Notes: generated by a model from the letters alone, not told the origin. Shown: positions 13,154 through 31,580, numbered from the stretch's first letter. The stretch: 37,082 bases of DNA from a virus (IMGVR_UViG_3300031952_004642); one strand, 5' to 3'. Numbers and translations are program-made.

Positions 13154-13925
13154 TGTGTCCATACCATAGCCATCTGACGGCGGTAAAATGGATATACCCC
13201 TCGGACTTCATAGGATTTTTGCATAACGCACAAACCCGAAGAAAGCGAGGAACTCAGTATATGGCTTAAAGCAGAATGAGAAAATTCATCCCGCTGGCTA
13301 AGAAACCTACGGAAAAGACCTAAAGAACAAACTCATCAGATGCCTCGTTTACGATGTACGCCGCACAGTGATGGGCATGGCCACACCACTCGGCTACTTA
13401 ATCATCCCTAAGTTGGCTGAAGAAAAATATCAGCAGATGAATGAGAAAATCTGGTCGAATTACAGGCTCAACAACAAATATAAGCTCAACAGAACAGATT
13501 TTGACAGCATGTTAGAAGAAATGTATGAACAGAAAAAAGATACGTGGATTCAAAAAGAGCAGGACAGAGACTTCGGAACTCATCATGAAGAGAGATTCAA
13601 GCTCGGCGTATGGCTTGGTGAGCAGAAACAATTCATCGAGATAGACCACAAAGCTAAACAAAGGATTCTTGCGAGACAAATTTTCCGTGATTTGACCGAA
13701 GGTGAAATCGATGAGGTTGTCGAGACCGCACGAATGGGATTAAAGCTGGCAGACATCGAGAAGATGAAACAGAAACACACCAAAGATGCACGAAAAGAAG
13801 ACGAGACACTCGAAGAAGAAGAACGAGCCGAAATCGTAGCAAAAGCTGAACAAACTACCGAAAATACTGAAAAGGTTTCTGAAAACGATGAACAGGCTCC
13901 CGATGAAACCGAAAAACAGTCCTAA
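13154..13925 (+). CDS. ATPase C-extein (exons 13154-13167, 13188-13211, 13244-13268, 13302-13925)
   Basis: After removing three BHB introns: CVHTI-WIYPSDFI-ARNSVYGL-ETYGKDLKNKLIRCLVYDVRRTVMGMATPLGYLIIPK..., continuous with ORF 13368..13925. Confidence 0.85.
13168..13187 (+). other. BHB intron 3 (20 nt, canonical)
   Basis: Exon stem GTCCA/TGGAT, central helix TACC/GGTA, bulges ATA and AAA, intron stem GCC/GGC. Removal gives AT|A TGG and deletes a TGA. Confidence 0.92.
13212..13243 (+). other. BHB intron 4 (32 nt)
   Basis: Central helix CTTC/GAAG, bulges ATA and AAA, intron stem GG-A-TTT..TGC/GCA..AAA-C-CC. Removal gives AT|A GCG AGG AAC (IARN). Confidence 0.88.
13269..13301 (+). other. BHB intron 5 (33 nt)
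   Basis: Central helix GGCU/GGCU (G.U, G-C, C-G, U.G), bulges UAA and AAG, intron stem AGC..AUGAG/UUCAU..GCU. Removal gives TTA|GAA and deletes a TAA. Confidence 0.82.
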
Positions 13926-14044
13926 ATAGTCCTCGGTCTGCACCGATTACAGACCCGCAGCCTCCACGTCGGACTGCGCATAGCACAACCACATGTCTCA
14001 CACTTCGGAGACTGTGACAACGGAAGCCTATGACGCTGCATCAT
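13922..14044 (-). CDS. Tagged 40-aa Zn-finger microprotein (not in ORF track)
   Basis: MMQRHRLPLSQSPKCETCGCAMRSPTWRLRVCNRCRPRTI; CxxC...CxxC; start overlaps the upstream gene end. Confidence 0.55.
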   Translation of the reverse strand: MMQRHRLPLSQSPKCETCGCAMRSPTWRLRVCNRCRPRTI

Positions 14045-14045
14045 T

Positions 14046-14276
14046 TCAATCACCAATCTTTTCCTCAATAGTCTTCTCAACGATACGCATCAGCTTCTCA
14101 GCACCTTTCCGGCTGAGCAGTCTCTTGCCATGAACAAGTGTCTTAGTTACCTTGCCATCACACTCACGCCTGCGCAAGACAACGAACTCGCCAACAGGCA
14201 CACCTTCGAGAGTATCTATGAAATCTTTACGCCATTTACGTATTTCTGAAAGGCGGGTCTTGCGTCGCATCAGCAT
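14046..14276 (-). CDS. Tagged small protein (MLMRRKTRL)
   Basis: ATG at 14276 overlaps the upstream stop codon. Confidence 0.75.
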   Translation of the reverse strand: MLMRRKTRLSEIRKWRKDFIDTLEGVPVGEFVVLRRRECDGKVTKTLVHGKRLLSRKGAEKLMRIVEKTIEEKIGD

Positions 14277-14524
14277 CACCACTTCTTCTTCGAAGATTTT
14301 TGCAGGCCTTCACCGATTCCCTCAAGCATGCCGACACCAATGCCAGCTCCTGCCAAACCAAGCCCCGCTCCCATTATCTCATCACCTTTCGAATAGCCGA
14401 GACCCTTGGCAGCAGCACCACCGATTGCCAGACCTGCGCCTGTCTGCATCATCACATCAGACATGCGAGCCTTGCGAGACTTATGCTTCTTGGACTTAAC
14501 TAGCCTGCTTTTTCTTTTTGCCAT
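14276..14524 (-). CDS. Tagged glycine-zipper membrane protein (MAKRKSRL)
   Basis: GAGLAIGGAAAKG and GAGLGLAGAGIGVGML segments. Confidence 0.75.
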   Translation of the reverse strand: MAKRKSRLVKSKKHKSRKARMSDVMMQTGAGLAIGGAAAKGLGYSKGDEIMGAGLGLAGAGIGVGMLEGIGEGLQKSSKKKW

Positions 14525-14786
14525 GCTTCATCTCCTCCCTATATTCATAAGCACGCTTGCGCAACTCCTTCATAGTCGTCACGCCAGCGTATTTTTCGAC
14601 AGGCGGCTTGGCCCCATAAGCACCAATCGCAGCAAGTGCACCACCACCGCCAACAATCATCGAACCAAGGATTGGATTAATCGCAACATAAGGAATAGCA
14701 GCAATAGACGTAACGCCAGACGCATAAAAAAGCCGTCTGCGCCATTTCCCGTTCCCCTGCTTAGCGAGCCTTGATTTTCTTGGCAT
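14496..14786 (-). CDS. Tagged two-TM protein (MPRKSRL)
   Basis: Two hydrophobic helices with Gly motifs. Confidence 0.75.
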   Translation of the reverse strand: MPRKSRLAKQGNGKWRRRLFYASGVTSIAAIPYVAINPILGSMIVGGGGALAAIGAYGAKPPVEKYAGVTTMKELRKRAYEYREEMKHGKKKKQAS

Positions 14787-15102
14787 GAAGATACCTCTTT
14801 ATCTGTCTTTTGACCATTGCATCACGTTCAAGAGCCCGTTCACGCTGAGCCCTTATCTCAGCAAGACCGAATGCCCCGCCAATCGTCGGCGCAATACTCA
14901 AAAACCCGAGACATGCACCGAGCATAGGATTCACAGCAGCCGCTGGAGCAGCACCAGCGATAAACACCACACCAGTACCAGCCGATGCTTTTGCGATATT
15001 TTCAGGGCCGAATGCCCTTTCCAGCACAGCACGACACTTAGCTAAACGAACATGTTTTGGAACAGCAACCCGAGCCCTGCCTAAACGATGTCTCATAACC
15101 AT
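14761..15102 (-). CDS. Tagged two-TM protein (MVMRHRL)
   Basis: Hydrophobic hairpin; first gene after the promoter at 15123-15150. Confidence 0.75.
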   Translation of the reverse strand: MVMRHRLGRARVAVPKHVRLAKCRAVLERAFGPENIAKASAGTGVVFIAGAAPAAAVNPMLGACLGFLSIAPTIGGAFGLAEIRAQRERALERDAMVKRQIKRYLHAKKIKAR

Positions 15103-15122
15103 CTTGAGATTTCGAAAGATGG

Positions 15123-15150
15123 TTTAAAAATAGTATCTAAAATGGCAGGA
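15123..15150 (-). promoter_or_regulatory. Array promoter CTGCCATTTT-N-TATA
   Basis: Plus strand TTTAAAAATAGTATCTAAAATGGCAGGA; ATG ~21 nt downstream. Confidence 0.75.
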
Positions 15151-15186
15151 ACCCTTTTAAGAAAAGCGTTCACGGAAAAAACTCAT

Positions 15187-15603
15187 TCACTGATTCAGCT
15201 TCAGCACCTCAGCAAGAGTCTCATCAACAAGAGAAGGCGATTTGCGTACACTTTCCTCAACACGGTTCGCACGCCGATGAGCTTGTTCATAACTCATGCC
15301 TTGCTTCATCAGATGACGCTCCCATAGCTCATGAATGAGAATGACCTTCCTGTCATGTGGTGAAAGGCCTTCCTCAATCCAGACCTCGCCCTTTGGAATG
15401 TATTTATACACGTTATCATGTCCTGCAAGAGCAAAATCAACGGAGAACTTATCACGGACTGTCTGACCACTGACCAGCATGACCTTCAGGTTGTCAGAAC
15501 TGTATTTTTCAATAACACCACGATAGACAAGCCGTAACCTTAGCTTCCTTTGAGCACGATGAGCAACAAAAGCTGATTTCGGCAACCTTGAATGTCTTGT
15601 CAT
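15187..15603 (-). CDS. Tagged zincin-like metalloprotein (MTRHSRL; HELWERH...AH)
   Basis: VSGQTVRD..VDF..AGHD.VY.YIP..EVWI...LIHELWE..LM...YEQAH pattern with HExxE-type metal site. Confidence 0.7.
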   Translation of the reverse strand: MTRHSRLPKSAFVAHRAQRKLRLRLVYRGVIEKYSSDNLKVMLVSGQTVRDKFSVDFALAGHDNVYKYIPKGEVWIEEGLSPHDRKVILIHELWERHLMKQGMSYEQAHRRANRVEESVRKSPSLVDETLAEVLKLNQ

Positions 15604-15608
15604 ATTAA

Positions 15609-15725
15609 TTACCCGAACTGGAACTCCATCTCATCATAGTCATCCCGATGAACGACTTCATGATGGCGAAGCTTCCTCTTTCCAAGCCTCTTCAAAACCC
15701 GTTTAAGCCTAGAAAATCTTGCCAT
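15609..15725 (-). CDS. Tagged 38-aa microprotein (not in ORF track)
   Basis: MARFSRLKRVLKRLGKRKLRHHEVVHRDDYDEMEFQFG; fills the gap between neighbouring genes. Confidence 0.65.
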   Translation of the reverse strand: MARFSRLKRVLKRLGKRKLRHHEVVHRDDYDEMEFQFG

Positions 15726-15727
15726 GG

Positions 15728-16450
15728 TCAACCCTTCAGCTCATCATGAAAAGAAGGCTCTTCGGCATTCTCATCAACGCCAGAGAATTCATCAGTTCCA
15801 AGCGCACCAGAAGTTGTCGCAGTCTTCGGCAGATTGATATCAGCAGCATGTGGGGCAACACCAATGAATTCCTTTATGTTCCTTCTCGGCATAGTGTGAG
15901 TCGAACCATCAGGCATCGCAATCTCGATGTCTTCGAAGTTCAGATAGTCCTCTGCACGAACATAACCAACCAAACCAGCATCATCGGCAGGCTCATCGAA
16001 TAGCTGGGCCTTGAGCAGAACACTCTCTTCAGGATACTCAGCCATCAGCCGCCTAGCCACTTCAATGTTCTTGCCATGAAGCTGAGCCTCATCTTCATCT
16101 AGATAGATTAGCTCATGCATGAAACCGCCAAGCTCCTTTGCCGCCTTCCCACCCTTCTCCTGAAGTTCAGCATAACCTTTCGTTACATCTTCCTTTATGT
16201 CTTTGAACGTTTTCTTCAAGTCAAAATGAGGACTATCCTGAGCAAGCTCCTTCGTATCGGACTTAACAGACGAAGAAATCTCAGCATCGCCAAAATCATA
16301 TGAGACTTTCGGCTCAGCGGCATCAAGGGATTCCTGCTCATATGAGACTTTCGACTCAGGCTGACCACCAGAAGAATCTGGCTTATCATGCTTGAGTCTA
16401 TCCTTTCGCCTTGAACCATTTCCCTTCAACAAACGTGTTCTGCGAGCCAT
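15728..16450 (-). CDS. Tagged acidic protein (MARRTRL)
   Basis: Start ATG 16450, ~24 nt from the TATA. Confidence 0.8.
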   Translation of the reverse strand: MARRTRLLKGNGSRRKDRLKHDKPDSSGGQPESKVSYEQESLDAAEPKVSYDFGDAEISSSVKSDTKELAQDSPHFDLKKTFKDIKEDVTKGYAELQEKGGKAAKELGGFMHELIYLDEDEAQLHGKNIEVARRLMAEYPEESVLLKAQLFDEPADDAGLVGYVRAEDYLNFEDIEIAMPDGSTHTMPRRNIKEFIGVAPHAADINLPKTATTSGALGTDEFSGVDENAEEPSFHDELKG

Positions 16451-16505: not shown

Positions 16506-16754
16506 TCATGCCTTTCGCTCCTTCGAGCTTACAAAACGCTCGACCTTCCCCAGACGAAGCTTATGCTTGACGAACTCTTTCCATTCCTGAGGAGTCCATT
16601 CATATTCCTTCTTCATCAAGGATTTGAACAATCTGCGAGCATGACGCTTGGTTCGTGCTATGACACGCACTGAGAATGGATAGTCTTCAGGTGTCATGTC
16701 AAAATATTTTGTCACATAATGCGGATGCTTTCGAGCAAGACGAGAACGTTTCAT
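16506..16754 (-). CDS. Tagged small protein (MKRSRL)
   Basis: 82 aa; ATGA overlap with the upstream microgene. Confidence 0.8.
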   Translation of the reverse strand: MKRSRLARKHPHYVTKYFDMTPEDYPFSVRVIARTKRHARRLFKSLMKKEYEWTPQEWKEFVKHKLRLGKVERFVSSKERKA

Positions 16755-16849
16755 ACATACCCCAACCTAAGCTCCTCACGCATAACATCGAACTTCGATT
16801 TTTCAGCATGCCTCTTCTTGCGGCTTTTAGAAAGACGTGAACGCTTCAT
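16751..16849 (-). CDS. Tagged 32-aa microprotein (not in ORF track)
   Basis: MKRSRLSKSRKKRHAEKSKFDVMREELRLGYV; coupled by ATGA overlaps on both sides. Confidence 0.7.
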   Translation of the reverse strand: MKRSRLSKSRKKRHAEKSKFDVMREELRLGYV

Positions 16850-17058
16850 CTCAACCATCCCAACTTCTTCATGGCTTTCTTTCCTTGTTTCTCCAGCCGC
16901 TTCTTCTCAGCGGCGAAACGAGGGTCTCGAATATAAACAGCACCATGCTTAGCCACAGCAGCGGTAACCTCATCAGAGCTAATCTCATTAAGCTCCTTCT
17001 CGATGAGCGGGATTTTCCTGTCACCGAATTTTACGAGACGGGATTTGCGCTTAACCAT
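16846..17058 (-). CDS. Tagged small protein (MVKRKSRL)
   Basis: 70-aa ORF. Confidence 0.8.
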   Translation of the reverse strand: MVKRKSRLVKFGDRKIPLIEKELNEISSDEVTAAVAKHGAVYIRDPRFAAEKKRLEKQGKKAMKKLGWLR

Positions 17059-17446
17059 ATATTACCTCGCCGAAAATAGCCTCCTGCACAACACCATCAA
17101 CTGCATCCGCATCCCAGTTACCAGTGTCCATGATATCGACAGAATCCAGCCCTCTGAAAAGATTATATTTACCAGACAGATTCTTCTCGACAAATGAAGG
17201 AATCGCCTTTGCAATTTGGTCTGCTGTAACCGTATGCTCTTTGCCTGTTTCAGTATCCAAGAACTTAAAGATTCCAGCATCATATTTCCAGCTTATGCAT
17301 CTCAACGAAGAAGATGAATACTCTGGATAGTTCTCCATCAATTCATTCGCCATTTCCTTGGCCTTAGAAGGTGAAAGCTTGACAGTGACAAGCCTGCTCG
17401 GACGTGGCCTTCCCGCAGATGTCATAAGACGAGAACGTTTAACCAT
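17051..17446 (-). CDS. Tagged protein with conserved phage-type C-terminus DADAVD.VVQ.A.FGEVIYG (MVKRSRL)
   Basis: C-terminal motif recalled from uncharacterised phage proteins; start ATG 17446. Confidence 0.75.
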   Translation of the reverse strand: MVKRSRLMTSAGRPRPSRLVTVKLSPSKAKEMANELMENYPEYSSSSLRCISWKYDAGIFKFLDTETGKEHTVTADQIAKAIPSFVEKNLSGKYNLFRGLDSVDIMDTGNWDADAVDGVVQEAIFGEVIYG

Positions 17447-17642
17447 TGATAGCACCTGCACTCTTCAGGAATCTCGAAAGCTTCATTTTCACGGCACTCT
17501 CATTATCGAGCTCTTTTACACCAGCATCAGACATAATAGAATCATAATCCTCTCCCTGAGCAACGAAGTCTCCAAGCGAGAAAATCCTTAGCCGCCTGTC
17601 ATGAACGAATGACAACTTGCGGGAAAGACGTGAACGCTTCAT
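17439..17642 (-). CDS. Tagged small protein (MKRSRL)
   Basis: 67-aa ORF. Confidence 0.8.
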   Translation of the reverse strand: MKRSRLSRKLSFVHDRRLRIFSLGDFVAQGEDYDSIMSDAGVKELDNESAVKMKLSRFLKSAGAING

Positions 17643-17884
17643 TCTTTCACCCCGAGCTCATTTGCTGTGAAAGCACCCCACCAGTTTTTCTCACGTGGAA
17701 ACCTTACCTCAAAGACATAAAGACTGCCGCTTTTAATCCTCGCAAATACGGTCTTCCCAGCGATTTTAGAGAACATAGCTGCCTCAGAATGCGGAACATT
17801 TGTTATTCTATATTGCCTAAGCTTCCGCAAACGCAGCTTTTCATGAGGACTCATTTCCCGACGTGCAAGACGTATGCGCTTCAT
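17639..17884 (-). CDS. Tagged small protein (MKRIRL)
   Basis: 81 aa, ATGA overlaps. Confidence 0.8.
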   Translation of the reverse strand: MKRIRLARREMSPHEKLRLRKLRQYRITNVPHSEAAMFSKIAGKTVFARIKSGSLYVFEVRFPREKNWWGAFTANELGVKE

Positions 17885-18078
17885 GGCCCCACCTCGATAG
17901 CTCTGACAGATTTGCCGCCTTTTTTCAAATGAGCAACAAGCCCTTTGGCTTCAGCACGTGTAAGAAGAACACGAGACGACTCAGGGTCTTCGATTTTACT
18001 CAGCCCTACCGCTTTTTCAACCCTCTCATCAACAACGACATAACGCCTTTTCGGAAGCCTCATTCTCCTATGAATCAT
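17881..18078 (-). CDS. Tagged small protein (MIHRRMRL)
   Basis: 65 aa, ATGA overlaps. Confidence 0.75.
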   Translation of the reverse strand: MIHRRMRLPKRRYVVVDERVEKAVGLSKIEDPESSRVLLTRAEAKGLVAHLKKGGKSVRAIEVGP

Positions 18079-18365
18079 AAATCCTCCACCACCTTTATCG
18101 GCAGATTTCCCGTCACGCAGCGTGCATGGATTCTCCTTAGATGAGGAAGACTCAAAGAAGGCAGGACATCAGCAATCGATTCACCGAATGCGCACATCTC
18201 ATCCTCGAGAACACTTAGCTCTGGCACACCACCAAGCTTTACGATATCAGTTACCAGCTCTTTCTTCTCAGTCGCCAAATCAAGCCTGCGCTTAAAGAAT
18301 TCACCCTTCACCGTTCTCGGAAGCCTTCCATTGCGATTCATTTTTATTACTCTCCAATTAATCAT
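18075..18365 (-). CDS. Small protein with tag variant (MNRNGRL from ATG 18341)
   Basis: ORF track; internal ATG gives the tag-like start. Confidence 0.7.
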   Translation of the reverse strand: MINWRVIKMNRNGRLPRTVKGEFFKRRLDLATEKKELVTDIVKLGGVPELSVLEDEMCAFGESIADVLPSLSLPHLRRIHARCVTGNLPIKVVEDL

Positions 18366-18380
18366 GACAAAGCAAAGCAG

Positions 18381-18659
18381 CTACTTCACCCTTGTCTGAC
18401 CTTTAGGCGGATGGAAAACTGGACATGTCCCCTTGGCGGTCTTTTTCTTCAGCATGCTCTGCGGCCTCGTACCTACCTTGCAAACACCACCTTTGAACTT
18501 CCCCTTTGGACATCCGACCACAAGCTTCACGCCTTTCTTGATTTTCTTCGTTCTGAAGCTCTTCGGGTCAAATTCCGCAGGGTCAGCAAGGCGCATACGA
18601 CAGTACTTCGCCTTCTTTCCACCCTTTTCCACCTTAAGCCTCTGTCCTCTTTTTGGCAT
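18381..18659 (-). CDS. Basic Cys-containing protein (MPKRGQRL)
   Basis: 92 aa, RLADPAEFDPKSFRT..GVKLVVGCPKG. Confidence 0.75.
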   Translation of the reverse strand: MPKRGQRLKVEKGGKKAKYCRMRLADPAEFDPKSFRTKKIKKGVKLVVGCPKGKFKGGVCKVGTRPQSMLKKKTAKGTCPVFHPPKGQTRVK

Positions 18660-18673
18660 AATGAATCACGATT

Positions 18674-19009
18674 TTACTTGTCAACTTCAAAGTCAACGAC
18701 CAGTGCCTTAACACGGTCTCCGAACTTACCAGCCTTCCCCGTGACGGCATAAACAGGATAAACACCATCTCCGAGACCAGATGAACTTACAACAGCCAGC
18801 TTGATTCCCGTCTTGTTTTTCAACTGGTTCTTACCAGCAAGGCTCACCTTGGATATATTATCATAAGATGGAATCCCATTCTTTGCACCGATGTATGATG
18901 GGTCTGTCACAACTACCTGACCAGAGTCAACGCCAATGACACCTATCCGCTTGAACCTGTCTCCTGCACGCATTTTCAGCCCTGAAAGCCTACCTCTTCG
19001 CTTTACCAT
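18674..19009 (-). CDS. Tagged DUF4241-like protein (MVKRRGRL)
   Basis: IGVDSGQVVVTDP and SSGLGDGVYPVY motifs resemble DUF4241 (from memory). Confidence 0.65.
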   Translation of the reverse strand: MVKRRGRLSGLKMRAGDRFKRIGVIGVDSGQVVVTDPSYIGAKNGIPSYDNISKVSLAGKNQLKNKTGIKLAVVSSSGLGDGVYPVYAVTGKAGKFGDRVKALVVDFEVDK

Positions 19010-19010
19010 A

Positions 19011-19400
19011 TCATTTCCCCCTCTTATCAGCATCACGAGCACGGTCAGCAGCCCTCAATGCATTAACAGCCTGCTCAGCCGTAAATCCACGCTGAAAATA
19101 ATCCCTGAGCTTGCTCTCATTTACGATTCCACCATATCCGAAACCGACATTCTGCTCGTACTGCTCAAAGGGAGAGAGCTTCACCTTCGGCTCAGCCACA
19201 GTTATACGCTCAGCGAGCAAATCCTTGAAGCTTCTGCCAGTGCGATGAGAAAGCGCCCATGCTTCCATGAAATCCTGTTTGGTGATTGGATATTCCTTGC
19301 CCTCAACGAGAACGGTCTTCCTGTACTTCGGGAGCTTGCCTTTAATGGCGAGCCTACCCACGCCCCGAACAGTCACCCTATGCAGATTCGACCTTTTCAT
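19011..19400 (-). CDS. Tagged protein (MKRSNL...GRL)
   Basis: 129-aa ORF. Confidence 0.75.
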   Translation of the reverse strand: MKRSNLHRVTVRGVGRLAIKGKLPKYRKTVLVEGKEYPITKQDFMEAWALSHRTGRSFKDLLAERITVAEPKVKLSPFEQYEQNVGFGYGGIVNESKLRDYFQRGFTAEQAVNALRAADRARDADKRGK

Positions 19401-19957
19401 GTGAATGCCTCCTTCTTCGCATCTTTCATTTCTTTCTGAATCAGCTTAGCAGAATTCGTGACAGAGAAATCCTCATAAGGCATTTCAGCCGAAAAGAATG
19501 GCTCAGGTTCCATGGATTTGGCCCACTCCTTATGCATTTTCGAAACAACAGCCTTCTTTTCCTTCGGCTTCATCCCAGCAGTCGCTATGGTTTCCTGAAG
19601 CTCTTCCTGCCATTCACCACTCATCGCCTTGCCATAAACCTTTGCGGCCTTGCCAGCAAACTGTAAGAATTTCTTCATGCCTTCACGGAACTTGATAGGC
19701 GGCTTCGGAGTTAACGCCGCACGGCCTTTCTGCCATACGGCAAGCTGGCCAGCACGGCTCTGGATTTCCTGCTCAGCGACCTGTTTTGTCTCAGCAAGAA
19801 CTGGATTCCCAGCAGTCACTTTCGCCGAAAGAGTAGCATATTTCTTGACCCGTTCAGTGGGCATACCTTTGAGCTCAGAGGCAATCTGCCGCCTGAGACG
19901 ACCATTGCCCTTCATTGAAGAGCCAGACCTCGATAAACGTGTTCTTCCCATAGCCAT
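19397..19957 (-). CDS. Tagged helical protein (MAMGRTRL)
   Basis: 186 aa; first gene after the promoter at 19978-20003. Confidence 0.8.
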   Translation of the reverse strand: MAMGRTRLSRSGSSMKGNGRLRRQIASELKGMPTERVKKYATLSAKVTAGNPVLAETKQVAEQEIQSRAGQLAVWQKGRAALTPKPPIKFREGMKKFLQFAGKAAKVYGKAMSGEWQEELQETIATAGMKPKEKKAVVSKMHKEWAKSMEPEPFFSAEMPYEDFSVTNSAKLIQKEMKDAKKEAFT

Positions 19958-22063: not shown

Positions 22064-22064
22064 A

Positions 22065-23393: not shown

Positions 23394-23398
23394 ATCAA

Positions 23399-23806: not shown

Positions 23807-23807
23807 A

Positions 23808-23999: not shown

Positions 24000-24004
24000 G
24001 AAAA

Positions 24005-24838
24005 TCACCCAGCCGAGAATGTAATCTCCTTTTTGTTAAGCTTTGAAAAGACCTTCTGCTTGGCCTTGTCGAGAATCCACTGCTTTCCTATATCTCTATC
24101 AAGGTCTTCAGCCTTTCCACCCTGACCATACCAATGGTAACCAGCATCATCAGAGTTCCAGTTGTTCTCTCCATCAGAAGCATAGAAGTCCCGCATGCCC
24201 ATCACCCAGTTCTCCGGGTCGCTCATCTCGAAAACCTGCGGAATCGTGTACCCACCACGGACATCCGCACCACCGTGAACCGCAAGAAGGACAAAAGTCT
24301 TGCCACCCTTCCTGAACATCACATACTGTAGGGTCTGGTCAAGCGTGTTGTCATAATTGTATGTGTTGTCAACCTTGCCCATCTGGCCATCATCTTCACC
24401 ATAGAATTCAACAGACAACTCACCCTGCTCAGGAAAGACTTTCTTCATGAACCCTTCCATGGTTCCAGTTCCCCAGTCAGGATGGTCGCTCTCAGCCTGC
24501 TCTGGTTGTTTTATGAAAGCCTTGAACTGCGAATTCAATTTCTCACTTGCGGGAGAGACCTCTAGATTGCTGGTCAGGAAATCAAAGGTGCTGCGAGACA
24601 AAGTTACCTCATCATCATAGACTTCAATCTTCACCTGAGGCTCCTTGGTGAAATCCTTACCCTGATTCCTCTGGAACGCACGGCCATAGGCTCCACCAGA
24701 ATCCAAGAAATGAGCACCAGTATCCTCCTGCAACATACCAGCGATACGCTGCTGAGTTGGAGACATAGAAACTTTAGTCATGCGTGTAGAACGTGACTTG
24801 TTCGATTTCCTTGAAAGGCGAGTTCTCCTGACCATCAT
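24005..24838 (-). CDS. Tagged 277-aa protein (MVRRTRL; ML.E.TG.HFLDSGGAYGR..QRN motif)
   Basis: Conserved-looking N-terminal domain motif recalled from viral hypothetical proteins. Confidence 0.8.
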   Translation of the reverse strand: MMVRRTRLSRKSNKSRSTRMTKVSMSPTQQRIAGMLQEDTGAHFLDSGGAYGRAFQRNQGKDFTKEPQVKIEVYDDEVTLSRSTFDFLTSNLEVSPASEKLNSQFKAFIKQPEQAESDHPDWGTGTMEGFMKKVFPEQGELSVEFYGEDDGQMGKVDNTYNYDNTLDQTLQYVMFRKGGKTFVLLAVHGGADVRGGYTIPQVFEMSDPENWVMGMRDFYASDGENNWNSDDAGYHWYGQGGKAEDLDRDIGKQWILDKAKQKVFSKLNKKEITFSAG

Positions 24839-24999
24839 TTACCACCATACAAAAGCTTTTCATATTTCTTTTTCTCGGCAGGAGTCATGTACTCTTCAAT
24901 GACCTCACCAGACATCCGCCCAAGAGCAGAAACCTCTATATCATGGGCTTTATCGATATCAGTCTTAGCAGACCTTGAAAGGCGAGTTCTCCTGACCAT
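24835..24999 (-). CDS. Tagged 54-aa microprotein (not in ORF track)
   Basis: MVRRTRLSRSAKTDIDKAHDIEVSALGRMSGEVIEEYMTPAEKKKYEKLLYGGK. Confidence 0.7.
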   Translation of the reverse strand: MVRRTRLSRSAKTDIDKAHDIEVSALGRMSGEVIEEYMTPAEKKKYEKLLYGGK

Positions 25000-25004
25000 A
25001 AGAT

Positions 25005-25154
25005 TTACTCCCTGAAGACCTTCTTGGATTTATCGAAAATCTTCTTCGCTTCGCTGAAAACACCCTCACGCATCTTGGTCACAATTTTCTGTTCCTTCTT
25101 CACGATAGGCGTAACTTTCATCCGCTTTCGCATAAGACGAGATTGATTTAGCAT
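25005..25154 (-). CDS. Tagged 49-aa microprotein (not in ORF track)
   Basis: MLNQSRLMRKRMKVTPIVKKEQKIVTKMREGVFSEAKKIFDKSKKVFRE. Confidence 0.65.
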   Translation of the reverse strand: MLNQSRLMRKRMKVTPIVKKEQKIVTKMREGVFSEAKKIFDKSKKVFRE

Positions 25155-25381
25155 CACAAATCACGCTTCCTCGGCTCGGTTTTGACAATGACCCGCTTGA
25201 ATCCACCTACAACACCTTTACCCCGAACTGGTTTGTCTTCCACAAGAACCAAATTTGCGAAAGTATCTTCATCACGCATTATAAAATAGTCTCTTGGATT
25301 CGCAGAAAACTCTTCGCCAGTTTTCAGATTCAACAGCAAACGCCTCCACGGCTTTCGACTAAGACGACTTCTTCGTGCCAT
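25154..25381 (-). CDS. Tagged small protein (MARRSRL)
   Basis: 75-aa ORF. Confidence 0.8.
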   Translation of the reverse strand: MARRSRLSRKPWRRLLLNLKTGEEFSANPRDYFIMRDEDTFANLVLVEDKPVRGKGVVGGFKRVIVKTEPRKRDL

Positions 25382-25415
25382 AAACTTACCTGATAATCAA
25401 GTCTTCGCAAGACCA

Positions 25416-25441
25416 TTTATAAATAACACCTAAAATGGCAG
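25416..25441 (-). promoter_or_regulatory. Array promoter
   Basis: TTTATAAATAACACCTAAAATGGCAG. Confidence 0.75.
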
Positions 25442-25444
25442 GAT

Positions 25445-26098
25445 TCAAGTCCGAACATCCTTCGTCATCAGCGAATAGAACATGCTGCCATCCACCTTGG
25501 TCGGAACAAGGATAACGCTCTTATAGCCTTTCCTGTAATCCGAGACAGCACGCTTCATGTCCAAAGGATGAAGGTCATGCTTCAGCCTATCCTTCAGGTC
25601 ATATCCATCCTTCAGATAATCATTCTCTGTCTTCTTGGTAAGGCCATGAACTTTAGAGAAATGCGACCATCGCTCTTCGGCCTTGACCCCACGCTTATGG
25701 AAATCGGAAAGCCTGTCAAGAAGGAAATTCGTTGCGAACACCATATCGGTAGCGAATTTGCCACGAGCAAGGTCATCATAGAACTTCACGACACGATATC
25801 CCCATCGAGCTGGCCTCTGCATGGCTTCACCAACGGAAACAGCCAAAGGAGACGGCATCTTAGGAGCTTCCTTGCCCCATTTCTTCTGCAAACCTTTTCG
25901 GCGCTCGAGCTCCTTCACTGCAAAATCATGATAAGTAGAAAGAATCGGGTCAGCCACGATGGCTGATTTCTTGGCTTCCACAAAATCCTTGAGCCGAGGA
26001 TAAGACATCTGCTCAACTTCCTGTTTCATGGCAGTCTTCAGCCTGCCGCTGCGAACACCCAACGCCGACGATGCAAGCCTACTTTTTCTTCGTGCCAT
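25445..26098 (-). CDS. Tagged protein (MARRKSRL)
   Basis: 217-aa ORF. Confidence 0.8.
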   Translation of the reverse strand: MARRKSRLASSALGVRSGRLKTAMKQEVEQMSYPRLKDFVEAKKSAIVADPILSTYHDFAVKELERRKGLQKKWGKEAPKMPSPLAVSVGEAMQRPARWGYRVVKFYDDLARGKFATDMVFATNFLLDRLSDFHKRGVKAEERWSHFSKVHGLTKKTENDYLKDGYDLKDRLKHDLHPLDMKRAVSDYRKGYKSVILVPTKVDGSMFYSLMTKDVRT

Positions 26099-26243
26099 TC
26101 TTCACCCTCTTATATTTAGCATAGTCCAGAGGCCTCAATTCTAGCTGAGCAAGAAGCTCACTCGATGGCATGTCACCTGTTTTTTTTATACGCCAGAACC
26201 CCAACCTCGGAGCACGAGATAAACGTTTTCGCCTGACAGCCAT
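26079..26243 (-). CDS. Tagged 54-aa microprotein (not in ORF track)
   Basis: MAVRRKRLSRAPRLGFWRIKKTGDMPSSELLAQLELRPLDYAKYKRVKNGTKKK; directly after a promoter. Confidence 0.65.
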   Translation of the reverse strand: MAVRRKRLSRAPRLGFWRIKKTGDMPSSELLAQLELRPLDYAKYKRVKNGTKKK

Positions 26244-26296: not shown

Positions 26297-26524
26297 TTAA
26301 CCGAAATCAATGGTGTCATCATCAGAAGACTGAGACTGAGACGATGATTTCCTGCCCTCTTTGATTTTATTTGCAGCGCCTTTCATGATATTGCCATAAA
26401 AATTAGCCATCCCATGGATGAACTGACCCGAGCGCTTACCGATAGACGAGCCCTCCGGCTTAGGCTCTTCCAACAGAGGCGGCTGTACCGTTTTCTGCAA
26501 TCTTGTCTTATTTCCTAAAGGCAT
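26297..26524 (-). CDS. Small protein with tag variant (MPLGNKTRL)
   Basis: Start ATG 26524. Confidence 0.7.
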   Translation of the reverse strand: MPLGNKTRLQKTVQPPLLEEPKPEGSSIGKRSGQFIHGMANFYGNIMKGAANKIKEGRKSSSQSQSSDDDTIDFG

Positions 26525-26569
26525 ATTCAAACTTCCTGAAGAATATTTCACCTGAAGATTTAAAAGTCT

Positions 26570-26995
26570 TTACCTCGGATGCGCACTGTAATCAAGATAG
26601 CTCGCACCAAAAATTTCAGACTTCAATGGAAGCCTTGCATCCTGAGCAGGAGTCTCAGCAAGTGATTTCTTCGCATCCTCAAGCGCACGCCAAACAGTCT
26701 TGGGAAGTATGCGACCCATCTCATCGATATCGGTATCATTCAAATCAGTGACCTCGACCTTCGATACAGTGTACATCAAACGCTTCCCGTCATAAAGGTC
26801 AATCATCGCTTGGTCAGGAGAGACCAGCGAGACAACAAGATGAAAAGGACTGCTCCTTCTCTTAGGAACAACATCCGAGACTGGCGGGACATCGACTGCC
26901 CCTGCGGGGGCATAGACTGGAACCACATCAAGCCTGTTCTCTGGCCTGAGCTTAGAACCATTCAGACCTGAAAGACGGGATGACCTTCTGACCAT
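26570..26995 (-). CDS. Tagged protein (MVRRSSRL)
   Basis: 141-aa ORF. Confidence 0.8.
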   Translation of the reverse strand: MVRRSSRLSGLNGSKLRPENRLDVVPVYAPAGAVDVPPVSDVVPKRRSSPFHLVVSLVSPDQAMIDLYDGKRLMYTVSKVEVTDLNDTDIDEMGRILPKTVWRALEDAKKSLAETPAQDARLPLKSEIFGASYLDYSAHPR

Positions 26996-27144
26996 TACTT
27001 CAGCCTCACACGATGTTTCTTCCTGTCAATGCCATTGAGAAAATCATCATATTCCTCTGGGCACTTGACTTTCTTGACCAGCTTATCATCTACAAAAACA
27101 TCAAACGGCTTCCTCGATACCCTGCGCATCCTTGAGCGTCGCAT
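26995..27144 (-). CDS. Tagged 49-aa microprotein (not in ORF track)
   Basis: MRRSRMRRVSRKPFDVFVDDKLVKKVKCPEEYDDFLNGIDRKKHRVRLK, with AGGTG RBS. Confidence 0.7.
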   Translation of the reverse strand: MRRSRMRRVSRKPFDVFVDDKLVKKVKCPEEYDDFLNGIDRKKHRVRLK

Positions 27145-27177
27145 ATTCAAACACCTGAATAATTCTTGAAAAGACCA

Positions 27178-27202
27178 TTTATAAATAACAACTAAAATGG
27201 CA
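27178..27202 (-). promoter_or_regulatory. Array promoter
   Basis: TTTATAAATAACAACTAAAATGGCA. Confidence 0.7.
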
Positions 27203-27213
27203 TAGAATCAGCT

Positions 27214-27585
27214 TCAATCATTTTCGGCAATGAACTTCCTTTGCTTAGCCATCTCACGCTTGGCACGGACATCGCTCACCACAACATAACCTAAAGCGGG
27301 AAGGCCTAGAGAAAGTCCCAGAGATGGAGCACCTAATGCCACACCAGCAACGAGCATCGAAGAAAACATACCACCTGTCAGGACTCCAGTCGTGACGGCA
27401 TTCTGCTTGTCCAAAGGCATCTTGTGAAAATTGTTCATGAACTTTTCCTCAAGCACATGAATGGGATGACCAGTTGTCGCAGATATATGTGCAAGAGCAT
27501 GACGCAACTTGGTCTTGAAGTGAACAGAGTGATGCCTATGTGCAACACCACGTAAACCAGACCTCGATAATCTTGACCTGCGCAT
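27214..27585 (-). CDS. Tagged two-TM protein (MRRSRL)
   Basis: Start ATG 27585; C-terminal hydrophobic hairpin. Confidence 0.75.
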   Translation of the reverse strand: MRRSRLSRSGLRGVAHRHHSVHFKTKLRHALAHISATTGHPIHVLEEKFMNNFHKMPLDKQNAVTTGVLTGGMFSSMLVAGVALGAPSLGLSLGLPALGYVVVSDVRAKREMAKQRKFIAEND

Positions 27586-27638: not shown

Positions 27639-28217
27639 TCAGCCACCGATTACAGGAACATATCTTGTCTCGAAGAATTCTCGCAGCTCACGGACTTCGC
27701 TACGAACATGCCAGAAAGGCTTCTCATTTGGATTCTCTATGATTTCATCAGCGATTCTGCGCATTATCCCAAGCGAACGCCTCGCCATCTCAAGGTTCAC
27801 AACATCCTTCTCATCCTCAGGCTTCACATTCTTCAGCTCGAGCTCCAGCATATCAACCTCATCCCTGACACGCTTGGCGTTCTTGACCATCCCAGAATCA
27901 TTCAAAGCCTCATAAGGCCCGATGTCACGTTCATATTCATTGACATCCTTTTCAAGCAGGCCAATCTCTTCTTCAATATGAGGAATCTCTGAATGCCCCT
28001 TCCATTGCATCGATTTCATCACAGAACCAAAAATGCAATGAGCCTCCTCATTAATACGTCCAACACCAACCTGATATTCTGTCTTTTTAGAATAGTTAGC
28101 ACAACCACCAATCTTATCAAACATATGATGATAGAGAGCAGTAAGCAAACGACCACGTTCTGAAACACGCTTCAACGAAGACCCACCAGAACTCAAAAGG
28201 CGTGATTTCCGCTTCAT
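27639..28217 (-). CDS. Tagged coiled-coil protein (MKRKSRL)
   Basis: 192-aa ORF. Confidence 0.8.
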   Translation of the reverse strand: MKRKSRLLSSGGSSLKRVSERGRLLTALYHHMFDKIGGCANYSKKTEYQVGVGRINEEAHCIFGSVMKSMQWKGHSEIPHIEEEIGLLEKDVNEYERDIGPYEALNDSGMVKNAKRVRDEVDMLELELKNVKPEDEKDVVNLEMARRSLGIMRRIADEIIENPNEKPFWHVRSEVRELREFFETRYVPVIGG

Positions 28218-28391: not shown

Positions 28392-29804
28392 ATGAAAGTT
28401 GCAAAGGAGTGGTTCAGCGTCGACACAAAAGGATTGCGAGCATTGCAAGAAGGCAAATCAAAGACCTTCGTGTTGCGGGAACTGGTACAGAATTGCTTCG
28501 ATGAGAACATCAGCGAGTGTTCCGTGAACATCATCAAGGACGGAAAGAAAATAAGAATGACAATCCATGATGACTCACCCGAAGGATTCAAAGACATCAG
28601 CCACGCATACACGCTCTTCGCAGACACGGACAAACGCAAAGACCCAGAAAAACGTGGGAGATTCAACCTCGGAAACAAAGAAGCCTTCTCGGTATGCAAC
28701 AAAATCGAGCTCACAACTACCAAAGGAACGCTCGTGTTCGACAACGATGGACGGCACAGCTCACGAACGAAAACCAGCAAAGGAACTGACATAACGGTCG
28801 AGTTCATCGGCTCGCAGGATGACATAGCAGAAATAATCAGCTATGCGAAAATCCTGCTCGTGCCAAAGGACATCCGATTCACAGTGAACGGCAATCGCAT
28901 AGAAAGCGAATCGCCGCTCAAAGTGACCGAGACAGAACTCAGCACCGAATTCGAGCAGAACGGAACTTTCAGGAAGACGGTCAGGAAGACGAAGCTGGAA
29001 GTCTATGAAAAGATTGGCAAAGCTTATCTGTACGAGATGGGCCTGCCAGTCTGCGAGATTGACTGCCAATTCTCCGTGAACGTCCAGCAGAAAGTTCCAT
29101 TGAGCTTCGACCGAGAAACCGTCCCAACGGCATATCTGCAAGACGTGTTCGCCGAGGTGCTGAACATGACGCACGAGCTGATAGAACCAGAGCACGCATC
29201 GGACTTGTGGGTCAGAGAAGCAACCAGAGACGAGCGAGCACAACCCGAGGCGATAAACGACGTTATACACAAACGCTTCGGCGAGAAGGTCTGCATAGCG
29301 AACCCATTCGACCCCATCAGCATAGATGATGCACTAAGCCGTGGCTACAAGGTAGTCAGCGGCTCGGAGCTCAGCAAAGAAGAGTGGTCGAACATCAAAA
29401 ATGCAGAGCTGATGAAAAGCTCATCGGAGCTGTTCGGCAGGAACGGAGTCGCAGCACCAGAGGTCGCACCAACCCAAGATATGAAACGTGTCGCAGAGCT
29501 TGCAAAGAAAATCGCAAAGAGAATACTGAACATAGACCTGAAAGTCAGGTTCATCAAACATCAACAGGTATTCCCAGCGATGTACGAAAGAGAACACCAA
29601 GTCCTGACATTCAACACAGCAAAGCTTGGCAACAGGTTCTTTGCAGAACCAGTGAGCACACCAGTAATCGACATAATCATTCACGAACTCGGGCACTCAA
29701 AAGGAATGCACACAGAACAAGCGTATCACGACTGCCTGACCAAGCTCGGCGCTGAACTCACAATAATCGCTTTGAGAGACCCTTCGTTCTTTGGTCTCTC
29801 TTGA
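28392..29804 (+). CDS. GHKL ATPase fused to a C-terminal HExxH zincin-like domain
   Basis: LRELVQNCFD (N-box), DDSPEGF (G1), RGRFNLGNK (G2), KGT (G3) and IIIHELGH. Untagged, opposite strand, GAGGTGA RBS. Confidence 0.85.
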   Translation: MKVAKEWFSVDTKGLRALQEGKSKTFVLRELVQNCFDENISECSVNIIKDGKKIRMTIHDDSPEGFKDISHAYTLFADTDKRKDPEKRGRFNLGNKEAFSVCNKIELTTTKGTLVFDNDGRHSSRTKTSKGTDITVEFIGSQDDIAEIISYAKILLVPKDIRFTVNGNRIESESPLKVTETELSTEFEQNGTFRKTVRKTKLEVYEKIGKAYLYEMGLPVCEIDCQFSVNVQQKVPLSFDRETVPTAYLQDVFAEVLNMTHELIEPEHASDLWVREATRDERAQPEAINDVIHKRFGEKVCIANPFDPISIDDALSRGYKVVSGSELSKEEWSNIKNAELMKSSSELFGRNGVAAPEVAPTQDMKRVAELAKKIAKRILNIDLKVRFIKHQQVFPAMYEREHQVLTFNTAKLGNRFFAEPVSTPVIDIIIHELGHSKGMHTEQAYHDCLTKLGAELTIIALRDPSFFGLS

Positions 29805-29816: not shown

Positions 29817-29915
29817 TCATGTATCTCGATGTGCTTCAATATCAATTTCTTCCATCCGTTTCCACATACACATATGCTTCTTTTTATGTTTCTTCGGAAG
29901 TCTAGAACGCTTCAT
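29817..29915 (-). CDS. Tagged 32-aa microprotein (not in ORF track)
   Basis: MKRSRLPKKHKKKHMCMWKRMEEIDIEAHRDT; ATGA overlap. Confidence 0.65.
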   Translation of the reverse strand: MKRSRLPKKHKKKHMCMWKRMEEIDIEAHRDT

Positions 29916-30304
29916 GACTTCACCTTCTTCAAAATACGAGCAGCAGACATCTTCATGAACTCTTTCTGAACCTCAACCATATGCTGCTCGAGAGTAGGCG
30001 AATCAGCATAACCCTGAAAATTAGCTTTGTTCAAATCGTATCGGCCTTTGTAAACATCACCATTTCCGAAAGCAACTTCAAATCCAATCTTATGATAACC
30101 TCCTTTGACATCAGGAGCAGTCGCTCTCCAAGCATCAAGAATCTTGTTCGCTTCAGCGAAGCTTTTGACTGTCACAGGCTTCATACATTCTTCGGTGCGG
30201 CCTTCCCAGCGAGTCAGAACTATCTGCTTCACGGAAGGGAAGGTCTCCAGCCTCATCAGCTTCCTCGAAAACAATTTCTTCTTGAGACGTGAACGCTTGA
30301 CCAT
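29912..30304 (-). CDS. Tagged LPD25-like protein (MVKRSRL)
   Basis: GYHKIGFEV.F..G..YKGRYDL resembles large-polyvalent-protein domain LPD25 (from memory). Confidence 0.6.
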   Translation of the reverse strand: MVKRSRLKKKLFSRKLMRLETFPSVKQIVLTRWEGRTEECMKPVTVKSFAEANKILDAWRATAPDVKGGYHKIGFEVAFGNGDVYKGRYDLNKANFQGYADSPTLEQHMVEVQKEFMKMSAARILKKVKS

Positions 30305-30305
30305 A

Positions 30306-30455
30306 TCAAGACCTCTGACCTGCCAACCACATCATCCGAGCGGTCTTCTTTTTAACCTTGGCATTTTTCATTAACATTTTGACTTCCAACTCTTCATTCT
30401 TATCTGCAAAAGTCAATGATTTCAATGATACCCTAGAAAGACGTGAACGCTTCAT
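30306..30455 (-). CDS. Tagged 49-aa microprotein (not in ORF track)
   Basis: MKRSRLSRVSLKSLTFADKNEELEVKMLMKNAKVKKKTARMMWLAGQRS. Confidence 0.7.
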   Translation of the reverse strand: MKRSRLSRVSLKSLTFADKNEELEVKMLMKNAKVKKKTARMMWLAGQRS

Positions 30456-30649
30456 TTCAACACCTTTTTGAGTTTAACAACCATGTAATCTCTACCACGT
30501 GAATCAGGCAATGCTATCGCAGATTCTAACTTCCAACCAGAAGGAATATCAAAAAGAGCAACCTTCGTTAGATGTTCCTTCCCAGCATAGCGCAGCCTTT
30601 TGATTTTCTGCAAAGAGCCACCATGAGAAAGTCGTGAACGTTTTACCAT
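30452..30649 (-). CDS. Tagged small protein (MVKRSRL)
   Basis: 65-aa ORF. Confidence 0.8.
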   Translation of the reverse strand: MVKRSRLSHGGSLQKIKRLRYAGKEHLTKVALFDIPSGWKLESAIALPDSRGRDYMVVKLKKVLK

Positions 30650-30653
30650 AATA

Positions 30654-30938
30654 TCACTTAGACACTTTGACTATCTCAGCCACATCCCCAAGCCTTACTT
30701 TCTTCCAAGGCGCAGGCCTCGTGTAACCTTTCGGCATTTTCTCAAGACACTTCCAGACAGGATTAGAGTCTAATGGATTTTTCCAGCTACAACCCTTGCA
30801 ACTCGGATATATATCTCCCCAATGATTAGTCCCCTGCATCTCTACACGACCACATCTGGTGCACCGATAACGCTTCATCGAATACGGGCCAGTAGTCATC
30901 AGACGAGTGGATTTTGGGAGACGTGAACGCTTGACCAT
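30654..30938 (-). CDS. Tagged Zn-finger protein (MVKRSRL)
   Basis: CTRC...TNH...CKGC...VWKC. Confidence 0.8.
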   Translation of the reverse strand: MVKRSRLPKSTRLMTTGPYSMKRYRCTRCGRVEMQGTNHWGDIYPSCKGCSWKNPLDSNPVWKCLEKMPKGYTRPAPWKKVRLGDVAEIVKVSK

Positions 30939-30939
30939 A

Positions 30940-31257
30940 TCAACCAGACCTCTTCTTCACAGCTTCCCTGAGCATGTAAGTCAATACATAACTCGGACGC
31001 TGAGACAGCATATCAGGCTTTTTCAGTGATTCATTCCACCACATGAGAACACGGTCTTGCATTTCCTTTCTACCATGACTCAAACCAGCATCTTTTGAAG
31101 AACGAGTTTCCAATGTAACAATATCATCTAGCTTATAAGCAGCACCAATATTACGCAAATAAGATTTAAGCGCATCAAAAGATTCAAATTTCAAACGACC
31201 CTTAGGCTTTCGGACTATCACAGAGCCACCACGAGAAAGTCGTGAACGCTTGACCAT
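30940..31257 (-). CDS. Tagged protein (MVKRSRL)
   Basis: Start ATG 31257. Confidence 0.8.
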   Translation of the reverse strand: MVKRSRLSRGGSVIVRKPKGRLKFESFDALKSYLRNIGAAYKLDDIVTLETRSSKDAGLSHGRKEMQDRVLMWWNESLKKPDMLSQRPSYVLTYMLREAVKKRSG

Positions 31258-31258
31258 A

Positions 31259-31498
31259 TCAAACACCCAACCGCTGAGCCCGCTTCAAAGAATCTCCTTT
31301 GCGGATTCCCCTATGCCTAGCTTCAGCTTCGACCACCTTAGACATCATCCTGCCAGCCTTTGTCTTCTTGTCGATTCCCTCAGACTTCGGGTCATCTAGG
31401 ATATTCTCAATGACATAATCAGGCTCTCTACAAAACTGGGATTCCAAACCCTGCTTCACCAGCCTGCAAGATTTTGGAAGACGTGACCTGCGAACCAT
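31259..31498 (-). CDS. Tagged protein (MVRRSRL)
   Basis: Start ATG 31498. Confidence 0.8.
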   Translation of the reverse strand: MVRRSRLPKSCRLVKQGLESQFCREPDYVIENILDDPKSEGIDKKTKAGRMMSKVVEAEARHRGIRKGDSLKRAQRLGV

Positions 31499-31499
31499 A

Positions 31500-31580
31500 T
31501 CAACCTCTTCCTTTAGCCAGAGACTTGAAAAAAGCACCAAGCTTGCCGCCAACACGCTTCATCCTTCTGCGCCTTGCCAT
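31500..31580 (-). CDS. 26-aa basic microprotein (not in ORF track)
   Basis: MARRRRMKRVGGKLGAFFKSLAKGRG; first ORF after the promoter; ends with an RBS for the next gene. Confidence 0.55.
   Translation of the reverse strand: MARRRRMKRVGGKLGAFFKSLAKGRG

Follow-up and report, generated by a model that had tools for sequence, protein, structure and literature searches.

A bipartite basic leader on an array of unrelated genes in a probable archaeal virus-like element, and its tentative reading as a docking signal

Why should dozens of proteins that have no other resemblance to one another, encoded side by side in one genome, begin with the same short peptide? This question is raised by IMGVR_UViG_3300031952_004642, of which we analysed a stretch of 37,082 nucleotides (hereafter the window) that takes up the final 37 kb of a sediment-metagenome contig 106 kb in length and has a G+C content of about 45%. 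The element is probably archaeal and virus-like, because its TATA-like boxes, GGTG-type ribosome-binding sites, homing endonucleases and inteins fit that assignment. An initial annotation had proposed that about 45 genes between positions 13922 and 31580 carry one N-terminal tag of six or seven residues, which it likened to the capsid-targeting sequence of phage T4. The analysis presented below leads us to regard the tag as a putative shared terminal address peptide, unusual in its scale and in its bipartite basic form.

The tagged array and the form of its leader

When the minus strand is read from stop to stop, small genes are seen to tile the DNA from 31580 to 13922 with almost no gaps. A six-frame scan with the strict pattern M-x0-3-[KR]-[KRH]?-x?-[ST]-R-[LM] returned 34 matches on this strand, all between 14276 and 31498, one of which (at 26892) is a spurious overlapping frame. 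The plus strand gave two matches, one of them a genuine tagged gene at 1171. With an open frame of at least 30 residues imposed, 33 strict matches were counted in the region, whereas 200 mononucleotide shuffles, which served as the null model, averaged 0.2 and never exceeded 2. Inclusion of degenerate forms (e.g. MPLGNKTRL, MLNQSRL, MKRSNL and MNRNGRL) brings the number of tagged minus-strand genes to 46, which bears out the earlier estimate; tagged genes make up about 60% of the roughly 75 open reading frames called in the window. The Ser-Arg-Leu codons that had been quoted in support are also exact, namely AGC-AGG-CTA in the gene starting at 14524, TCA-AGG-CTC at 14786, TCT-CGT-CTT at 16754 and TCC-CGT-TTA at 22184. 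The smallest open reading frames, of 26-40 residues, are predicted gene calls, several of which have orthologues, and several tagged mini-proteins of 32-40 residues consist of scarcely more than the leader and an acidic tail.

The array falls into eight promoter-delimited blocks. The first gene of each is preceded by a TTTAAA/TTTATA-type box 22-30 nucleotides 5' of the ATG, and the genes within a block possess GGTG-type ribosome-binding sites or overlap by 1-4 nucleotides. These transcription units were deduced from sequence only; a listing of sequencing runs contained no RNA run and had the source sediment metagenome as its sole match. The blocks, together with a tagged gene that lies beyond them, are as follows (L016 is one of the related elements described below).

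29817-31580, minus strand: block A, eight genes (starts 31580, 31498, 31257, 30938, 30649, 30455, 30304 and 29915), N-termini mostly MVKRSRL or MKRSRL; TATA-like box 22-30 nucleotides before the first ATG; exact motif TTTTTAAACCATCTT at 31595-31609
27639-28217, minus strand: tagged gene of 192 residues, preceded by a TATA-like box of its own; leader long and bipartite
26297-27585, minus strand: block C, four genes (starts 27585, 27144, 26995 and 26524); gene 27144 has the short leader form, which lacks the second motif; orthologues of each gene occur in three to six elements (the window counted), and those of 27144 and 26524 in five or six
22875-26243, minus strand: block D, nine genes (starts 26243, 26098, 25381, 25154, 24999, 24838, 23999, 23806 and 23393)
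24005-24835, minus strand: 276-residue exemplar within block D; leader at residues 1-19, then a linker, with the folded body from residue 26
21755-22793, minus strand: block E, starts 22793, 22632 and 22184, plus a DUF5661 gene with the degenerate tag MSVYGSRL at about 22063, whose orthologue in L016 has the full tag
16506-19957, minus strand: block F, twelve genes (starts 19957, 19400, 19009, 18659, 18341, 18078, 17884, 17642, 17446, 17058, 16849 and 16754); gene 19400 has a rare N-L variant and gene 19009 belongs to the DUF4241 family
15187-16450, minus strand: block G, three genes (starts 16450, 15725 and 15603)
13922-15102, minus strand: block H, five genes (starts 15102, 14786, 14524, 14270 and 14044); in genes 15102 and 14786 the leader is followed by transmembrane helices (hydropathy); exact motif TTTTTAAACCATCTT at 15116-15130
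1171-1560, plus strand: tagged gene beyond the array, beginning MMKRTRL, with a second R-L 12 residues on; it lies within the virion/membrane block

The array thus occupies the range first assigned to it, but the tag is not confined there, as the gene at 1171-1560 demonstrates.

The form of the leader was determined from 222 examples drawn from the window and from six related elements (L015, L016, L017, L018, L019 and L116). A core, M-x0-2-[KR]-R-[ST]-R-L, is followed by a spacer rich in Ser, Gly and Lys, and the Arg of this first motif stands at residue 5 or 6 in 160 of the 222. In about half of them a second motif, [KR]-x-x-R-[L/M/I], follows 12-14 residues on; the distance from Arg to Arg, measured to the second R-[L/M/I], is 12 in 74 leaders, 13 in 30 and 14 in 13. 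The consensus of the 12-spaced form is M-[V]-[KR]-R-[ST]-R-L-S-[RK]-[SG]-x4-[RK]-[K]-x-R-L. Some conserved families possess the first motif alone, 5-8 residues from the start. The Arg that precedes Leu or Met is substituted in about five of some 235 array genes, and the adjoining basic positions interchange Lys and Arg freely. A shared N-terminus had therefore been correctly recognised, but not its length, since the tag is bipartite and extends over about 19 residues. The Ser or Thr of the motif is not essential in the relatives, since L017 has Ala, Gly, Arg or Lys at this position.

Over their first 20 residues most tagged proteins carry a net charge between +5 and +11, and the bodies range from strongly acidic to strongly basic. 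In an AlphaFold2 model of the 276-residue exemplar, with a mean predicted local distance difference test score (pLDDT) of 88.8, residues 1-25 are devoid of secondary structure, with pLDDT values of 62 and 69 for the first two blocks of ten residues. The leader is therefore predicted to be disordered as well as basic. In a hydropathy scan about four tagged proteins had a transmembrane helix, which began at residue 27 or later, and by the positive-inside rule their leaders would remain cytoplasmic.

Unrelated bodies, a conserved peptide and its distribution

A paralogous multigene family was considered as the source of the common N-terminus and was rejected. All-against-all BLASTP of the tagged proteins without their first 12 residues gave one weak pair (19397-19957 with 25445-26098), in agreement with the claim that the bodies are unrelated, and the few bodies recognised by Pfam or PHROGs belong to differing families (DUF5661, DUF4241/phrog_5209, phrog_11344 and phrog_2355). 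Profile matches begin past the leader, at residue 24 for phrog_11344 and at residue 19 for phrog_5209.

The relationship between leader and body can be followed in the 276-residue protein, whose family matches phrog_11344 and for which 357 homologues were collected. Only the closest of these (P0001-4, P0008, P0010 and P0013) bear the leader. More than 100 remote, phage-like homologues lack it and start a few residues before the conserved sequence ENTGxHFLDSGGAYGR, within about 20 residues of its ENTG motif. The DUF4241 family presents the same picture, so that more than 150 remote homologues of the 276-residue and DUF4241/phrog_5209 families possess the domain without the tag, an outcome that the initial annotation had put forward for checking. 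Similarly, a Kyano_Gp96 body carries a KRSRL-type leader in L116 and a different N-terminus in a more distant element, L120, the two bodies being 39% identical. From these comparisons we conclude that the leader is a lineage-specific add-on, the phrog_11344, DUF4241/phrog_5209 and Kyano_Gp96 families being tagged only here. In P0006 the upstream DNA still encodes the leader, which a late start call has cut from the protein; P0005 and P0007 start at the same internal Met. Automatic annotation thus under-reports the tag by choosing later starts. The internal Met used in the P0006 call is the Met of the second motif (cf. L016:9947-10780). As for the 276-residue family itself, its hundreds of phage and prophage homologues share invariant DSGGAYGR and GGxDVRGGY motifs, and Foldseek found no match in the PDB for the model; it is a widespread phage protein without an assigned fold class or function.

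Codon usage bears on whether the peptide or the underlying DNA has been conserved. Relatives with G+C contents of 35-53% retain the peptide with other codons, as expected from the proposal that conservation is at the protein level. For example, the peptide encoded in the window by AAG-CGT-TCA-CGT-CTT is encoded by AAA-AGA-TCA-AGA-TTA in L015 (35% G+C), and DNA patterns that find several matches in the window and in L016 find none in L015. All six Arg codons are used for the tag Arg, in proportions like those of the gene bodies. In orthologue pairs, the fraction of conserved residues with differing codons is 0.47-0.73 for the leaders versus 0.44-0.58 for the bodies. Because codons vary between relatives and synonymous sites are as free in the leaders as in the bodies, these data indicate that selection maintains the leader peptide itself and not its DNA. 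A codon bias is nevertheless present at two positions. TCA accounts for 57% of the tag Ser codons versus 11% of those in the bodies, and is dominant in L015 and L016 as well, and CTT accounts for 60% of the tag Leu codons versus 35% in the bodies, with CTG never used for the tag Leu.

The leaders of the window might also have been homogenised by exchange within the genome. Only 4 of 903 pairs share at least 18 identical nucleotides. The longest shared run, of 27 nucleotides, is found in the adjacent genes 24999 and 24838 (24973-24999 and 24812-24838) and suggests local copying of leader DNA. The identity of orthologous leaders is 39%, compared with 28% for non-orthologous leaders of the same genome and 24% for those of different genomes. 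Strong concerted evolution within a genome is rejected by this comparison, and each leader has mostly been inherited together with its own gene.

Arrays of tags are present in L015 (a 62-kb contig), L016, L017, L018, L019 (SMTZ1 sediment) and L116 (a 91-kb contig, in which 36 of 43 genes bear the tag). They contain 1.25-1.76 strict tags per kb, versus 0.028 per kb in 808 kb of control loci, which are other loci with homologues of the 276-residue family. At least ten tagged families are common to three to six elements including the window, so that much of the array is a conserved core rather than variable cargo. The suggestion that the tag co-occurs with this ATPase/coat type is supported by its presence in all eight other elements examined that have a P-loop ATPase at least 38% identical to the reference copy, with the tagged genes set between an untagged replication block and the block of the ATPase and coat. 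Two of these, L118 and L119 (ATPase identity 38-40%), carry the leader on small soluble proteins interspersed with the signal-peptide proteins of the structural block. In L120 (26%) a basic leader of another type, M-[S/T/A]-[F/Y]-K-x-[K/P/N], is common to the small genes, and in L121 (22%) no shared leader is evident. The alternative leader of L120 is found on five or six consecutive small genes (L120:4465-6273), one of which has the Kyano_Gp96 body.

It was also of interest to ask whether such an N-terminus might be generic, that is, equally common among host genes or among the replication genes of the element. The replication genes are untagged. For the host the comparison is an approximation only, using four archaeal genomes (6.9 Mb) that are not those of the host; in these a narrow DNA form of the tag, which has 2-4 matches in most arrays and none in L017 or L018, had no match. 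A pattern scan of IMG/VR for the tag DNA gave isolated chance matches and no arrays, and querying the Atlas with just the leader sequence yielded no usable match. When species genomes were scanned with the 276-residue family, neither a tagged relative nor a clue to the host emerged, the best match being an untagged contig of ANME-2 (anaerobic methanotrophic archaea) at 36% identity.

Untagged genes around the array

In the window and its relatives a conserved order is seen: an untagged replication-type block, the tagged array, a P-loop ATPase and giant secreted proteins. The classes of gene that had been described as lacking the tag do lack it, and they are listed here.

31630-36766, minus strand: replication-type block encoding a 196-residue zinc-ribbon protein, an acidic zinc-ribbon protein of 75 residues (32220-32447), proteins of 51, 185 and 247 residues, an HNH nuclease and a 586-residue MCM/BrxL-like ATPase
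28392-29804, plus strand: GHKL-type ATPase (Pfam HATPase_c_3, E 1.2e-4, below the curated cut-off), on the opposite strand inside the array
20005-21711, minus strand: secreted beta-helix protein with a signal peptide (Pfam NosD, Beta_helix) and a coat-like C-terminal transmembrane tail
11428-13925, plus strand: P-loop ATPase with the Walker A sequence GETRSGKS, interrupted by a LAGLIDADG gene
1557-11211, minus strand: secreted or membrane proteins of 1211, 1159, 260, 242 and 111 residues, with signal or transmembrane segments by hydropathy, and a NUMOD3 homing nuclease
311-978, minus strand: coat-like hydrophobic protein of 62 residues, two copies

The truly secreted proteins of the element thus have ordinary signal peptides and no tag. 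The end segment of the beta-helix protein (20005-21711) clearly resembles the 62-residue coat-like proteins (311-978).

The P-loop ATPase adjoins the array in those relatives in which that flank was recovered. Its family has about 35 members, all unannotated, and its model has a RecA-like fold for which Foldseek returned only weak, generic RecA-like matches in the PDB; we infer that it acts in assembly. Inteins interrupt the ATPase at differing sites, within the Walker A loop in L017 (13022-14515) and L116 (14191-16542), and the window gene (11428-13925) is split further downstream around its LAGLIDADG gene, a type of gene that is intein-associated in the relatives.

The strongly acidic zinc-ribbon mini-protein is untagged and conserved (window 32220-32447, L015:4911-5129, L016:253-471 and L017:3160-3381). 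Its gene lies just upstream of the array, before that of the zinc-ribbon protein (196 residues in the window), and in three relatives its net charge is -14 to -23 over about 72 residues. It could be an escort or partner of the basic leaders, or a DNA mimic. The GHKL protein, in comparison, was rejected as a universal reader of the leader, as it has an orthologue only in L016 besides the window. A full-length relative of it (33% identity to 28392-29804) is present in a 485-kb record labelled uncultured phage (LR745208.1), and neither the GHKL nor the 586-residue protein had a match in sequence searches of the PDB.

Possible roles of the leader

Several known systems resemble this one in part. 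In T4 the capsid-targeting sequence is, like the leader, a short N-terminal peptide on unrelated and partly fast-evolving proteins of one virus, which share one reader. It marks fewer than ten proteins (IPI-III, Alt, gp67 and gp68), is not basic and binds the scaffolding core of an HK97-type head, after which the prohead protease cuts at L/I-x-E. The leader differs in being bipartite, strongly basic and present on about 46 proteins, and the coat protein here is a hydrophobic protein of 62 residues. Pfam and PHROGs searches of the scanned proteins of the window and its relatives identified no protease, major capsid, portal or terminase family, and no L/I-x-E motif follows the tag in the leader alignments. 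Thus the analogy drawn by the initial annotation retains its logic of an address label, but the leader is not a capsid-targeting sequence of the T4 kind; no T4-type protease, capsid or scaffold emerged from the family searches of the proteins scanned.

The Plasmodium export element (PEXEL, RxLxE/Q/D) and the RxLR motif of oomycetes are also short Arg/Leu motifs near the N-terminus of many unrelated proteins, and direct dozens to hundreds of them along one transport route. They follow a Sec signal peptide and serve eukaryotic secretory pathways, and plasmepsin V cuts PEXEL after the Leu. In the tagged proteins no signal peptide precedes the motif, and the consensus is [KR]-R-x-R-L at residues 2-8, so that this class was rejected. 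Substrates of type IV secretion, such as VirE2 and VirF of Agrobacterium, provide a further parallel, in that a positively charged terminal signal is placed on unrelated proteins; these Arg-rich signals are read by a P-loop coupling ATPase and their bearers travel with DNA. Those signals, however, are C-terminal and loosely defined, and no type IV components were seen here.

With signals of the twin-arginine translocation (Tat) and Sec pathways the leader shares its N-terminal position, its positive start and the Ser/Thr, Arg and Leu of its motif. A Tat signal was rejected, since there is no S/T-R-R-x-F-L-K, no A-x-A site and, in at least 40 of the 46 leaders, no hydrophobic core. A Sec or class III prepilin signal was rejected as well, given the small number and late position of the transmembrane helices described above. 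Of the 222 leaders only 39 conform to the classical bipartite nuclear localisation signal ([KR][KR]-x10-12 and then three or more basic residues in five), compared with 1 in 96 untagged proteins and 1 in 153 remote homologues. Such a signal was rejected on account of this low share and because the invariant Arg-Leu lies outside it and the gene organisation is prokaryote-like. Finally, the bodies are folded proteins of up to 276 residues, which argues against precursors of ribosomally synthesised and post-translationally modified peptides. In the literature we found no description of the peptide strings, of a capsid-targeting sequence in an archaeal virus or of a comparable Arg-rich packaging signal.

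We tentatively propose that the leader serves as a shared docking signal by which proteins are gathered at the DNA or the assembly machinery of the element, from where they may be exported with the particle. To this we assign a probability of about 0.42. An address or docking peptide is suggested because the leader is terminal and disordered, has invariant anchors at a fixed spacing, is a lineage-specific add-on and is kept off the Sec proteins. Gathering at a site of assembly is preferred because the tag is linked to the assembly module by gene position, by its occurrence in L118 and L119 and by the gene at 1171. One shared partner would recognise the invariant Arg-Leu anchors, and, since the leader is strongly positive, this partner would be negatively charged. 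Candidates are the DNA of the element, the assembly ATPase encoded next to the array, the coat-protein tail on the cytoplasmic side and the conserved acidic zinc-ribbon protein. In this way both soluble proteins and those membrane proteins that keep a cytoplasmic N-terminus would be collected where DNA is handled and the particle is built, and some or all of them might then depart with it. Proteins that follow the Sec route would carry a signal peptide instead, and replication proteins would need no leader.

Several considerations weigh against this proposal. The ATPase, a presumed assembly protein, lacks a membrane anchor and has a generic RecA-like fold. A set of about 46 tagged proteins far exceeds any known virion cargo, and many of the tagged genes belong to the conserved core and are not variable effectors, which weighs against a pure cargo role. 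The structural blocks of L118 and L119 also hold several untagged soluble proteins, and the tag is therefore not a universal rule for non-secreted proteins. A predicted complex between the ATPase of L019 and residues 1-36 of one of its tagged proteins scored 0.02 and counts neither way. Further, a peptide so basic and disordered could bind nucleic acid of any kind and need no receptor of its own.

The last of these considerations may be developed into an alternative, in which the leader is a general nucleic-acid-binding arm that tethers proteins to viral or host DNA or RNA, or to a condensate, with no receptor and no packaging. The charge of +5 to +11 over 20 residues, the predicted disorder of a sequence rich in Ser and Gly, and the preference of the anchors for Arg over Lys are all in keeping with such an arm, and if the leader is extended, anchors 12 residues apart would be separated by approximately one turn of DNA. 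The mini-proteins of 32-40 residues, which are little else than leader and acidic tail, are also easily accommodated. Plain electrostatics, however, requires neither a nearly invariant Leu/Met nor a fixed N-terminal position, and the replication proteins, which do work on DNA, have no leader. Tagged integral membrane proteins fit poorly, unless they tether DNA to the membrane. We consider this explanation unlikely, although it deserves to be kept in mind more than any of those that follow.

A bolder form of the docking proposal is that the element possesses its own protein-sorting pathway, in which a dedicated receptor for the leader, perhaps the ATPase or the acidic zinc-ribbon protein, loads dozens of unrelated proteins into the particle alongside the DNA. 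A large, ready-made arsenal of proteins would then enter the next cell with the genome, and a switch of leader type between lineages would be matched by a switch of reader, as L120 hints. We regard this as rather doubtful.

The leader might instead be a removable pro-peptide or a degradation signal, its Arg-Leu sites being cut by a protease of the host or the virus, or recognised by a degradation machine, so as to time the activity or the lifetime of the whole set of proteins. An Arg-[Leu/Met] pair that is repeated just ahead of the folded body does resemble a processing site, and both the T4 capsid-targeting sequence and the PEXEL motif are cleaved. However, no protease domain was detected among about 40 proteins of the window and 10 of its relatives with Pfam (a scan that covered the 46-gene array in part) or among about 30 with PHROGs. 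There is no residue preference after the second Leu, and the second motif is absent from short-leader families, whose single motif lies 5-8 residues from the start. These facts make the pro-peptide improbable. Even less probable is an export signal for a non-Sec route out of the infected cell, into vesicles or a partner cell and independent of virions. One terminal signal on many unrelated proteins is reminiscent of the effectors of secretion systems, but no secretion machinery was identified and the tagged membrane proteins hold the leader on the cytoplasmic side. Finally, it may be supposed that what is conserved is a feature of the DNA or mRNA, either a context for translation initiation or a cassette recombination site, with the peptide as a by-product. 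This notion could draw on the Ser and Leu codon bias of the tag and on the 27 nucleotides shared by genes 24999 and 24838, but is largely refuted by the different codons of L015 and by a synonymous divergence in leaders at least equal to that in bodies. The use of all six Arg codons in proportions resembling those of the bodies, the rarity of long shared runs and the untagged genes of the element, which are encoded and presumably expressed without it, also speak against it.

To our knowledge, almost nothing is known of protein sorting in archaeal viruses. The sharp anatomy of the leader, with its invariant Arg-Leu, its 12-residue spacing and its strictly N-terminal and predicted cytoplasmic position, provides an experimental handle on both the peptide and its partner. 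If the leader does load particles, the system would outsize every known viral cargo system by a wide margin and might be turned into a tool for protein delivery. If the leader proves instead to be a DNA tether or a timing signal, it would still furnish a new rule by which the genes of these elements may be recognised and annotated.

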